Shown: positions 4,751 to 10,658, counted from the stretch's first letter. The stretch: DNA of 22,183 nt from a virus (IMGVR_UViG_2778261277_000014), one strand, 5' to 3'. Notes: a model not told the origin generated them from the letters alone. A program made the numbers and translations.

Positions 4751-4808
4751 AAAAACGGCGGCAGAGCAGTCACGGAGTAAAACTGATACCGCCAAACGTC
4801 ACCAGAAA
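4751..4808 (-). ncRNA. dicF: DicF-like small RNA (about 53 nt) ending in an intrinsic terminator (GGCGG...GCCGCC stem + U tract)
   Basis: Minus-strand sequence UUUCUGGUGACGUUUGGCGGUAUCAGUUUUACUCCGUGACUGCUCUGCCGCCGUUUUU matches, from memory, the published DicF sRNA at all but about one position; located between the ydf genes and dicB. Confidence 0.65.
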
Positions 4809-8196: not shown

Positions 8197-8598
8197 GTGG
8201 CAAAAGTTTTTACACAAGAAGAGCGGGAAAAAATTAAAGGGCAGGTGGTGGAACTCGTACGCCAGAGTGGGCGCGAGACGTTACGACAACTGGAAGCTAA
8301 AACTGGGGCAACAAGATATCTGATGAGCGTTCTGGCCAGAGAGCTGGTTGCCAGTGGCGATGTATACAGCTCTGGTTACGGGTTATTCCCGTCTGAACAG
8401 GCGCGTAAGGACTGGCAAAACGCCCGCAAAAAACTCTCGAGGGCAAAGGTGAAGAAAACAGCTGTGATTGATCCGGACCTTATCTGGTCGTTACCTGATG
8501 GAGAAATACGTCGCTACGACAGTCGCCTAAACATAATCTGTCGCGAGTGCCGGATGAGTGAAGTTATGCAGCGCATACTGGCATTTTATCAGGGATAA
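8197..8598 (+). CDS. Hypothetical protein (133 aa), possible HTH DNA-binding protein
   Basis: GTG start 4 nt after a strong AGGAGG SD; no recognisable catalytic motif. Confidence 0.6.
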   Translation: MAKVFTQEEREKIKGQVVELVRQSGRETLRQLEAKTGATRYLMSVLARELVASGDVYSSGYGLFPSEQARKDWQNARKKLSRAKVKKTAVIDPDLIWSLPDGEIRRYDSRLNIICRECRMSEVMQRILAFYQG

Positions 8599-8787
8599 TG
8601 TTAGGTATTTTAGACGTTACTAGATTAAAAAGCATTAGTTCAGGAGTGAATTGACATTCTCATTTTTCATGGCACAGGGTAGATCTGGCGTGGTTGTCCG
8701 CTTTGTGCCAAAAGCGGACGCCTACGCCCTAACTAAGCTATTGTGTAATATACGGTACACAATAGCGAAAATTCTAAGCTTGGGAAT

Positions 8788-9720
8788 ATGGAAATCAACA
8801 AAGAAAAATTGTCAGGTTTACTTAACTACTTCGAGTCTCGCAAGAAATACGCTGCAACTCGAATATCTAGTTTATCCAGTCAGAATGAGATCTGTTTCGC
8901 TTTGTCAGGATTGACGTTTCGAAACGGGCCTTATGTTTTCCAAGACGTAGGTGAATTAAGGGAGGTACTTCATCCACCAGGAGAGATAGAGTTAGCCAAA
9001 GCGCTTAAGAGCAAGTCGCTACTCAGCGCTGTTGCTCGTCATATGCCCGCAGTTACGCATGAGCTTGCGTTGCAAAGCAGTGAGTCGAAATTTTCTCAAT
9101 CAGACCTGACTATCGGATGGTGGATCATATCCGCGATCCGATGCCGCACACTCACCGATATACTTGTTCCTGCAGTAGCAAGTGCATCTTGGGATGTATT
9201 CCCTGCTCTTCAAGCCAACTCGTGTGAAGTCCAACTTCTTGAGGACGTGCCGGCAGTTCGGAGAATAAGCCCAAGTGTAGAGATATCAGTAGAGTCTCTC
9301 GACTGGGTTCAAGAGAATCTCAAGCGTTGGATAGATCTGCTAGAGCAACCAGCATTCCGGCTCGCTATTGATTCTTTAACTACTCACAACCAACACGCGA
9401 ATTTGAGAATGGCTGCTGCTGCTTTATGGGCAGGATTTGAAGCGCTCTTTGGAATCAATTCAGAGCTTCGTTTTCGTCTTGCTCTTATGGCCGCAGCATA
9501 TCTTGAGGAGCGAGGGCCTGATCGTTTAGCCACCTATCGTAGGGTTAAGAAGCTGTATGACTACCGTTCGAAGGCAGTGCATGGGGGAGCTACGTCAGAT
9601 AACTTTTTAGTTGAGCATATAATTGAGGTACGAGTGCTTTTATCCCGATTAGTGTGTCGCATGACAGAGATCGGAAAAATGCCCACAACCGACGATTACG
9701 AGGAACGGCTTCTAACTTAA
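8788..9720 (+). CDS. Hypothetical 310-aa protein with a C-terminal HEPN-like R-x4-H-G motif (YDYRSKAVHGG); candidate abortive-infection RNase
   Basis: Long ORF with its own upstream AT-rich region and hairpins; R-x4-6-H is the HEPN signature; located in an accessory region next to a hok toxin. Function is inference. Confidence 0.7.
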   Translation: MEINKEKLSGLLNYFESRKKYAATRISSLSSQNEICFALSGLTFRNGPYVFQDVGELREVLHPPGEIELAKALKSKSLLSAVARHMPAVTHELALQSSESKFSQSDLTIGWWIISAIRCRTLTDILVPAVASASWDVFPALQANSCEVQLLEDVPAVRRISPSVEISVESLDWVQENLKRWIDLLEQPAFRLAIDSLTTHNQHANLRMAAAALWAGFEALFGINSELRFRLALMAAAYLEERGPDRLATYRRVKKLYDYRSKAVHGGATSDNFLVEHIIEVRVLLSRLVCRMTEIGKMPTTDDYEERLLT

Positions 9721-9780
9721 GGCTTTTTCTAAGGTAACTTGGAAAAACGCTTGTTTTATCTATACACAGTAAGCCTAACT

Positions 9781-9812
9781 TCAGTTAACCCGCAATAATG
9801 AGGGTTAACTGA
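9781..9812. repeat. Perfect 11-bp inverted repeat TCAGTTAACCC-N10-GGGTTAACTGA
   Basis: Read directly; no adjacent T-tract, so not a classic intrinsic terminator; possible protein-binding site or RNA hairpin. Confidence 0.5.
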
Positions 9813-10101
9813 TCAACCTCCAAGATTAGGTACAATGAAGTGGTCAACAAAAACTGGCCACCGCAAGAAAACACGTCTATGTCAGTATTTATTCCGAACT
9901 TCCGTTGTTCGCTCAAAGCGGACTAAAAGGTTAGCTTGTGTCGGACTTTGCGTATTAAAAGAAGTGCAGGTGGTGACTAGTGGTTGAGCCCCATTTCCAC
10001 AGAAAAAATCAGAGAAACTATACCCAATAGTTGTATTGAATCACTGACGAGACAGCCTCATATTCATCAGGACTGGTGTACGTCCAATACAGGAGGTTGT
10101 G

Positions 10102-10191
10102 GTGCTGGTTCTCAAATGTGCGCTGGCTATTACGGCTGTAATGGCGATTTATTGTCTTGCTATTGTTCTTATGGATCGCCTTTCTGACTGA
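10102..10191 (+). CDS. Unannotated small ORF: 29-aa hydrophobic peptide (M/V)LVLKCALAITAVMAIYCLAIVLMDRLSD, candidate small membrane/toxin-like peptide
   Basis: Strong AGGAGG SD at 10091-10096, GTG starts at 10099/10102, TGA stop at 10189-10191; single TM-like helix with charged C-terminal tail. Below the ORF-track length cutoff. Confidence 0.3.
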   Translation: MLVLKCALAITAVMAIYCLAIVLMDRLSD

Positions 10192-10402
10192 TTTCACATT
10201 GGCGAGGTAACGGTAGTTAAGTAGAATGGCTGCGGGTGCTTGAGGCTATCTGCCTCGGGCATGAACACCAACGGCAGATAGAGAAAAGCCCCAGTTAACA
10301 TTACGCGTCCTGCAAGACGCTTAACATTAATCTGAGGCCAATTTCATGCTAGACACATGTAGGTTAGCCTCTTACGTGCCGAAAGGCAAGGAGAAGCAGG
10401 CT

Positions 10403-10558
10403 ATGAAGCAGCAAAAGGCGATGTTAATCGCCCTGATCGTCATCTGTTTAACCGTCATAGTGACGGTACTGGTAACGAGGAAAGACCTCTGCGAGGTACG
10501 AATCCGAACCGGGCAGACGGAGGTCGCTGTCTTCACAGCTTACGAACCTGAGGAGTAA
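10403..10558 (+). CDS. hok: Hok/Gef-family type I toxin (HokD/RelF-like, 51 aa)
   Basis: MKQQKAMLIALIVICLTVIVTVLVTRKDLCEVRIRTGQTEVAVFTAYEPEE is a textbook Hok sequence; AAGGAG SD upstream; intrinsic terminator downstream. Confidence 0.9.
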   Translation: MKQQKAMLIALIVICLTVIVTVLVTRKDLCEVRIRTGQTEVAVFTAYEPEE

Positions 10559-10627
10559 GAGACCCGGCGAGGGAGAAATCCCTCGCCACCTCTGATGTGG
10601 CAGGCATCCTCAACGCACCCGCACTTA

Positions 10628-10658
10628 ACCCGCTTCGGCGGGTTTTTGTTTTTATTTT
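10628..10658 (+). terminator. Rho-independent terminator after hok (AACCCGC-TTCG-GCGGGTT + T tract)
   Basis: GC stem with TTCG tetraloop followed by TTTTTGTTTTTATTTT. Confidence 0.75.

Follow-up and report, generated by a model that had tools for sequence, protein, structure and literature searches.

Enterobacteria encode small single-pass inner-membrane proteins of 15-50 amino acids, such as YohP, YkgR, YoaK, KdpF and PmrR, which were found by ribosome-binding-site models together with comparative genomics. Lambdoid phages, in turn, carry morons, independent accessory transcription units that lie between conserved genes and were defined for HK97 and HK022. Here we explore a short open reading frame (ORF) upstream of a hok locus that can be set beside both of these, as well as beside the type I toxins and the mok frame of hok. 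The window, by which we mean the whole 22,183-nucleotide stretch that was analysed (IMGVR_UViG_2778261277_000014), is a Qin-like lambdoid prophage of Escherichia coli, and identical DNA occurs in E. coli chromosomes. Its gene order runs from a DUF977 gene (8197-8598) through a 310-aa orphan gene (8788-9720) and a gap to a hokD-type hok, rem and a DUF968 gene. A first-pass annotation of this sequence had placed a small hydrophobic peptide in a non-coding gap before hok; the gap is real, extending from 9721 to the hok mRNA start at ~10234. The reading that we rank first, and hold to be reasonably probable, is that the small ORF is a genuine gene for a 29-residue single-pass membrane peptide, a ‘moron’-type accessory. 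Besides the Rfam matches to two tRNAs, STnc100 and a cspA-type leader, the features considered below are as follows.

4756-4807, minus strand: Rfam match to DicF.
9897-10035, plus strand: conserved non-coding block upstream of the predicted promoter, accompanying the small ORF across most prophage contexts and to some extent on the virulence plasmid of Shigella/EIEC (pINV).
10018-10197, minus strand: antisense shadow ORF (also at 2477-2749 of locus L202 and 1454-1639 of locus L003).
10036-10064, plus strand: predicted sigma-70 promoter seen as a phylogenetic footprint, with -35 TTGAAT (10036-10041), a 17-nt spacer and -10 CATATT (10059-10064).
10091-10096, plus strand: Shine-Dalgarno sequence (SD) AGGAGG, 5 nt ahead of the conserved GTG at 10102.
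10099-10101, plus strand: upstream in-frame GTG, variable among alleles and not the conserved start.
10102-10191, plus strand: small ORF of 29 codons and a TGA, product MLVLKCALAITAVMAIYCLAIVLMDRLSD, with a predicted single transmembrane (TM) helix.
10199-10227, plus strand: hok mRNA promoter TTGGCG-17-TAGAAT, beginning 8 nt past the small-ORF stop.
10234-10558, plus strand: hokD-type type I toxin locus, with a leader (10234-10408) carrying tac, mok and sok-target elements and the hok coding sequence at 10403-10558.
10627-10644: hok terminator.

The small ORF resembles the YohP-type proteins in its length of about 30 residues, its one helix, its strong SD, its having been missed by annotation and its conservation among close relatives. 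Unlike them, it is borne by prophages and plasmids instead of the core chromosome, and it shows no similarity to any named member. With morons it shares a position between conserved early genes (DUF977 and the replication side, and the hok-rem-DUF968 side), a promoter footprint of its own, and presence or absence among otherwise similar prophages; it differs from them in having no terminator of its own and in bordering a cargo-swap slot without being the swapped cargo itself. The likeness to the type I toxins (Hok/Gef, TisB, Ibs, ShoB, DinQ, ZorO, Ldr/Fst) lies in the small hydrophobic product with a charged end, the association with mobile elements and the adjoining hokD-type locus, whereas no RNA antitoxin, no structured or SD-occluding leader and no family HMM match was detected. 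Finally, the mok frame too is short, precedes hok and shares its strand, but it lies inside the hok mRNA and overlaps hok (here in the frame from 10346), whereas the small ORF ends before that mRNA begins and is separable from it.

The AGGAGG at 10091-10096 and the open frame behind it, both reported by the first-pass annotation, can be read directly in the sequence, and the frame stays open through to the TGA at 10189-10191. Two GTG codons had been offered as starts, and both are present. That at 10099, which would give a product of 30 aa (10099..10191), varies across lineages (GTG, GTC, GCC, TAT, ATC), whereas that at 10102 is the sole start kept, as GTG or ATG; the start is therefore assigned to 10102, for a gene of 29 aa. 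A single hydrophobic stretch spans residues 6-24 of the peptide (mean Kyte-Doolittle value 2.6), a helix is predicted at approximately residues 2-24, and the C-terminus ends in an acidic tail, DRLSD, in keeping with the hydrophobic peptide, one TM helix and short charged tail first proposed. Over the same residues the mean is 2.4-2.8 in the window, consensus, E. coli B and pINV forms and 1.94 in XJ6.1, an allele with an Arg in mid-helix. Two Cys residues, C6 and C18, are conserved, and the peptide, if made, is almost certainly membrane-embedded. Across 5000 shuffles of the 682-bp gap, 9% yielded an SD, a start and an ORF of at least 25 codons, and a chance ORF that was equally hydrophobic (GRAVY >= 1.8) and had an SD arose in 0.02%.

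Of 5426 complete E. coli genomes, 3057 carry the block at 10040-10233, and in 1817 it is present at essentially its full length. The block and its ORF are also found in E. ruysiae, Shigella and E. albertii, and the block extends to four isolated phages and to IMG/VR prophage contigs. The exact gap sequence following the 310-aa gene (9721-10345) is present at full length in only 14 complete E. coli genomes. Furthermore, a tblastn search of plasmids recovered, in 135 records of the Shigella/EIEC invasion plasmid, a diverged copy, MLVLKGTLAIAAVMTIYCLIVVLMERFSD, that has an ATG start, 72% amino-acid identity and ~23% nucleotide divergence and lies ~290 nt upstream of icsP. The plasmid retains the promoter-like hexamers, SD and ORF. 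What remains of the hok locus is a degenerate promoter and a degenerate stretch of leader, its first ~55 nt; hok itself has been lost. This relic of the prophage module, consisting of the upstream block, promoter, small ORF, degenerate hok promoter and ~55 nt of leader, is present on all sampled Shigella/EIEC invasion plasmids.

2370-2690 of locus L202 (pWR100, NZ_CP037924.1, record positions 90,800-91,130), minus strand: pINV relic.

Conservation of the frame among related prophages, and the balance of synonymous and non-synonymous changes, had been named at the outset as a check on the peptide. Of 133 full-length copies, 132 keep the frame intact and the other is 2 codons longer; substitutions favour synonymous sites. 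XJ6.1, the most diverged prophage lineage at 82% nucleotide identity, has an ATG start and an in-frame 3-nt (one-codon) deletion in the ORF, along with a 4-nt indel in the leader. Prophage alleles show 27 distinct mutations, of which 12 are synonymous, 15 non-synonymous and none nonsense (expected synonymous ~29%, P = 0.064), distributed over the three codon positions as 8, 5 and 14. Between the consensus and pINV, whose copies are all identical and were counted as one lineage, we found nine synonymous and seven non-synonymous differences (Sd 9, Nd 7; dN/dS 0.20; Sd >= 9 under random placement, P = 0.017). The within-prophage and pINV-branch tests are independent and combine to P = 0.0085. For the window against pINV, 11/21 synonymous versus 9/63 non-synonymous sites have changed (Fisher P = 0.0009; dN/dS ~0.2), and dN/dS lies at 0.18-0.54 in every lineage pair. 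The non-synonymous changes are conservative (A/T/V, V/I/L, M/I/V/T, D/E, R/H), with the one exception of C18F.

Neither of the two rival frames stands up. The 67-aa ORF at 9984-10187, dismissed as implausible in the first-pass annotation, has a dN/dS of ~4 against pINV and a stop in XJ6.1; among the 27 distinct variant mutations, 3 would be stop-gains in one of the two alternative plus-strand frames. The antisense shadow ORF, 59 aa long, shares wobble positions with the small ORF and, as a shadow frame would be expected to, has a low dN/dS. It was rejected as a gene: it has no SD, and ~30% of copies carry stops in it or have no start. At least three independent mutations break it (CTG to CTA, GTA to TTA, and changes past the sense stop), and for the sense frame these have silent or conservative effects or fall beyond the ORF. 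The shadow ORF is annotated by RAST on pWR100 and in the HannyBb phage record, which by the same comparison is almost certainly a mis-call.

Rates along the locus need some care in reading. Among 47 long haplotypes, distinct substitutions per site number 0.14 in the ORF, 0.15 in the hok coding sequence, 0.39 in the leader and 0.44 in the upstream block; part of this sample was seeded on 17 nt of the ORF, and allowing for that the ORF stands at ~0.18. Nucleotide identity to pINV is 0.77 for the ORF and 0.77-0.80 for its flanks, so that the ORF is not the better conserved. On our reading these values are coherent only if neutral divergence is about 50%, as seen at synonymous sites and in the promoter spacer, in which case both the non-synonymous sites and the flanks would be constrained. 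The constraint is moderate (dN/dS 0.2-0.5) and few substitutions lie behind the estimate. Deep phylogenetic tests are impossible because the family is limited to Escherichia/Shigella, with no distant relatives found. Taken together, the alignments indicate that the small ORF is conserved and very probably coding.

Upstream, the predicted promoter scores 8/12, just under the promoter-scan threshold used, and has counterparts in pINV (TTGAGT-17-CATATT) and in both HannyBb and the prophage allele L128 (TTGAAG-17-CATATT). Across these four sequences the spacer is always 17 nt long and only 41-47% identical, a divergence of ~50% that equals that of synonymous sites. Transcription of the small ORF would start at ~10070-10072 and give a leader of ~30 nt. 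The promoter is not universal: E. coli B is without the whole of it, and in the prophage allele L065 the -35 region is replaced. Early-operon read-through is thus probably a second source of mRNA. Additionally, around 11 IMG/VR alleles have a palindrome in place of the -35. In the loci L107, L101, L029, L066 and L049 the region of the -35 TTGAAT (equivalent to 10034-10052) has given way to the perfect palindrome TCTCATCA-A-TGATGAGA, which could be a protein-binding site or simply a promoter-inactivating variant. A LexA box was also considered for CTGG-N12-ACAG in the leader and dismissed on visual inspection, the spacing being wrong.

The start codon is conserved, as is a GGAG-type SD core in all lineages but one, and the 5-6 nt between the two vary. 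In diverged lineages the SD reads AGGAGG, GGGAGG or AGGAGA, the exception being a hok-less lineage with AGGGGG, and it is 6/6 identical in pINV. In E. coli B (1204-1563 of locus L002; C41(DE3)/B strains), the DUF977 gene lacks its normal 3' end, and its frame runs out of phase through the SD and first 13 codons of the small ORF before a stop, so that the two ORFs overlap. Downstream, there is no terminator between 10191 and the hok promoter, the next being that of hok. For the pINV copy, the transcription starts listed by dRNA-seq in S. flexneri M90T include none at the predicted promoter (PMC7132871, Additional file 4); they do include an orphan ‘novel transcript’ start at 91318 on the minus strand, 321 nt upstream and in the same orientation as the ORF (PMC7132871). 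This start is compatible with transcription of the ORF and lends no support to the predicted promoter under those conditions.

The DNA to the left of the module is variable. In place of the 310-aa orphan gene of the window, other genomes carry DUF4145, DUF2326, or an AAA ATPase with a hypothetical gene; E. coli B has no cargo, the DUF977 gene being fused directly to the small-ORF leader, and HannyBb has another set of phage genes. Mosaic junctions lie just upstream of the SD or the promoter in independent contexts (E. coli B, HannyBb, L128 and L065). Homology resumes at the promoter or the SD from one context to the next, so that the SD and ORF behave as the left end of a conserved module. Among 118 loci seeded on the hok promoter, 65 have an intact ORF and 53 have the upstream DNA replaced, with flanks alike. 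At least five independent junctions (~10159, 10167, 10176, 10179 and 10192) remove the 5' part or all of the ORF, and the junction at ~10179, shared by 37 loci, is the common ST131 type, directly after queH. Several lineages having lost its 5' part or the whole of it, the ORF is dispensable. Only its last ~25 nt (from ~10163-10179) always accompany the hok promoter. At the ST131 junction, a ‘mini-ORF’ of six codons with an SD (ATG GAT CAC CTT TCT GAT TGA) was considered as a conserved element and rejected; its SD-like AAGGAG is the 3' end of queH.

The slot between the DUF977 gene and the small ORF (8599-10100) is itself a hotspot of variable cargo in Qin-like prophages (loci L001, L192, L198, L200, L201 and L002), filled with the 310-aa orphan of the window, DUF4145, DUF2326, an AAA ATPase with HNH, an AAA ATPase with a hypothetical gene, or QueH, or left empty. 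Several of these cargo genes resemble defence genes. Its junctions fall at differing points, which suggests illegitimate replacement instead of a fixed site. The 310-aa neighbour on the plus strand had been called HEPN-like. This could not be confirmed: Pfam, NCBIfam, PADLOC and PDB sequence searches gave no match, and the sole HEPN support is an R-x4-H motif (YRSKAVHGG) near the C-terminus. A 14-bp near-perfect hairpin at 9781-9812 (TCAGTTAACCCGCA / TGAGGGTTAACTGA, with a 4-nt loop and no T-tract) lies 60 nt past that gene and belongs to the cargo-specific part of the gap.

Between this cargo and the promoter, the non-coding block at 9897-10035 begins at a homology boundary (~9890-9898) seen in many genomes, and its positions 9990-10035 are 80% identical to pINV. 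Neither an Rfam match nor a structure signal was found for it, and it holds no convincing ORF. At ~9908-9924 it contains a GC-rich hairpin of 7 bp, GTTCGCT-CAA-AGCGGAC.

These contexts bear on the best-surviving alternative, namely that nothing is translated: the block would be conserved as DNA or RNA, as a flank of the hok promoter or as the recombination-prone border of the cargo slot, and the frame would be fortuitous. The retention of the last ~25 nt with the hok promoter, even where the remainder is replaced, points to reasons that concern hok or the junction; the ORF matches pINV no better than its flanks do; the gene has been lost repeatedly with no obvious consequence; and no start maps to the predicted promoter in Shigella. 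However, the 5' two-thirds of the ORF is unrelated to the hok promoter and yet persists without hok, and SD, start and frame length survive in five contexts and despite an in-frame indel. Moreover, the concentration of synonymous changes is confined to the frame of the small ORF, apart from the antisense frame, which shares wobble positions with it and is interrupted by stops. The region shows no RNA structure signal, and hydrophobic ORFs behind an SD were the rare outcome of shuffling noted above. We consider this alternative unlikely.

The neighbouring hok locus is a bona fide one, matching the Rfam sok/hok leader (RF01794, 115 bits) and Pfam HOK_GEF (E = 2e-23). The frame that starts from the ATG at 10346 is in phase with hok (MLDTCRLASYVPKGKEKQA-MKQQ..., 10346-10558, plus strand), and the HannyBb record calls the equivalent ‘MokW-like’; being in phase, the mok-equivalent is an in-frame N-terminal extension of hok and not an out-of-frame overlap. 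The small ORF stops 42 nt before the hok mRNA start, and each of the two occurs without the other. A hok-less prophage type (A65EC, 24AR0142 and the S. flexneri chromosome) has an intact ORF followed by unrelated DNA from ~10206-10215, and hok stands without the small ORF in the hokW form of Stx phages and in the ST131 type. By this comparison the small ORF is genetically separate from hok, and their association is not obligatory.

The first-pass annotation saw here the architecture of type I toxins and other small membrane regulatory peptides, and proximity to hok invites the reading that the small ORF encodes a second membrane-damaging peptide beside Hok, held in check by an unrecognised RNA antitoxin or by the fold of its mRNA. 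The proposed architecture stands as far as shape is concerned: 29 residues, a helix and a short charged tail recall TisB, Ibs, ShoB, ZorO and the Fst-like toxins, the gene adjoins a genuine type I locus, and it sits on mobile elements with a patchy distribution. Furthermore, transcription from the orphan start 321 nt upstream on pINV could produce the kind of long 5' UTR that mRNAs of type I toxins typically have. Membership in the toxins is unsupported, the other hallmarks not being found. A search for the minus-strand promoter of an antisense RNA, which had been suggested as a check, turned up nothing promoter- or terminator-like over or beside the ORF, neither strand of 9700-10233 has any Rfam match at a permissive threshold, and no antisense or divergent RNA gene was detectable. 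The sense mRNA (10071-10233) folds no more stably than its shuffles (z = 0.24), and its SD is not stably paired in the centroid structure; sense mRNA, antisense strand and upstream block alike show no excess fold stability against shuffles (z = 0.2-0.4). A repeat search gave no complementary segment targeting the ribosome-binding region, and no toxin or defence family HMM matches the peptide. A potent toxin is further disfavoured because a consensus-strength SD, predicted to be exposed and at ideal spacing, a constitutive-looking promoter and an upgrade of the start codon to ATG in two lineages would be odd with no visible antidote. The type I toxin reading is one of resemblance, not membership; the peptide is not demonstrably a toxin, and we judge this alternative quite improbable.

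A bolder and very doubtful extension would make the peptide a low-dose membrane effector that works with no antitoxin, is paired with Hok in timing lysis or aborting infection, and is kept on the virulence plasmid for a membrane function of its own by icsP. Highly improbable, in our estimation, is a regulatory upstream ORF whose transcription and translation would tune the read-through that reaches the hok promoter and leader, either by occluding the promoter or by yielding 5'-extended hok mRNAs. In its favour, only 8 nt separate the stop from the hok -35 and 42 nt from the hok mRNA start, with no intervening terminator; ORF and hok are adjacent in most copies; and ribosomes could in principle melt a weak terminator-like hairpin within the ORF (10126-10145). 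Against it, such sites are equally frequent in shuffles, the ORF is conserved in two hok-free settings (one prophage type and pINV), hok loci function behind other DNA (hokW of Stx phages, the ST131 type), and constraint at the amino-acid level is not expected of a pure regulatory ORF.

If the small ORF is a membrane-peptide gene, as we favour, we infer the following course from transcription to function. The gene would be transcribed from its own modest sigma-70 promoter, TTGAAT-17-CATATT, starting at ~10071, and during lytic growth read-through of the early-right operon would probably transcribe it too. With no terminator between them, the transcript would probably run on into the hok locus. 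Translation would begin at GTG 10102 behind the consensus SD, and the product may insert into the inner membrane with its N-terminus and Lys5 inside, a helix spanning approximately residues 2-24 and the acidic DRLSD tail outside. The most likely action would be residence in the membrane and low-dose modulation of a membrane protein or property, not antitoxin-controlled killing.

The first-pass annotation described the peptide as unannotated, which holds for most RefSeq genomes, where nothing is called at its position. It does not hold throughout: one allele, WP_000960667.1, is called by PGAP as a ‘hypothetical protein’ in some genomes, and the REL606 and BL21 GenBank records and UniProt have the small ORF as ‘hypothetical’, ‘conserved hypothetical’ or ‘membrane protein’. 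Profile searches (Pfam, NCBIfam, PHROGs, PADLOC) gave no significant family match. In Pfam nothing matches even at E <= 10, Hok/Gef PF01848 included, against 2e-23 for the neighbouring hok. An exhaustive phmmer search of 1.84 billion representatives returned only Escherichia relatives of 83% identity or more, some of them lengthened artefactually at the N-terminus, and a peptide-pattern scan of one GTDB genome per species returned only Escherichia/Shigella, plus contaminated MAG contigs. Literature searches by peptide string, accession and topic found no description of the gene in the library covered. It is thus already in the databases as a hypothetical protein, and is an orphan among small prophage-borne membrane proteins.

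The finding has some practical consequences. Annotation pipelines miss the small ORF or call the antisense shadow ORF in its place. The pINV relic falls inside the region used in PicsP-lacZ reporters, and reporters with DNA upstream of icsP or hok would include an extra promoter and gene. The gene alone opens no new mechanism. If made, however, the peptide would be a cheap, testable addition to the catalogue of prophage-encoded small proteins and, being full length in about one third of complete genomes, among the most widespread uncharacterised small membrane proteins of E. coli. Its added interest lies in this prevalence and in its retention on the Shigella virulence plasmid beside icsP after hok has decayed.
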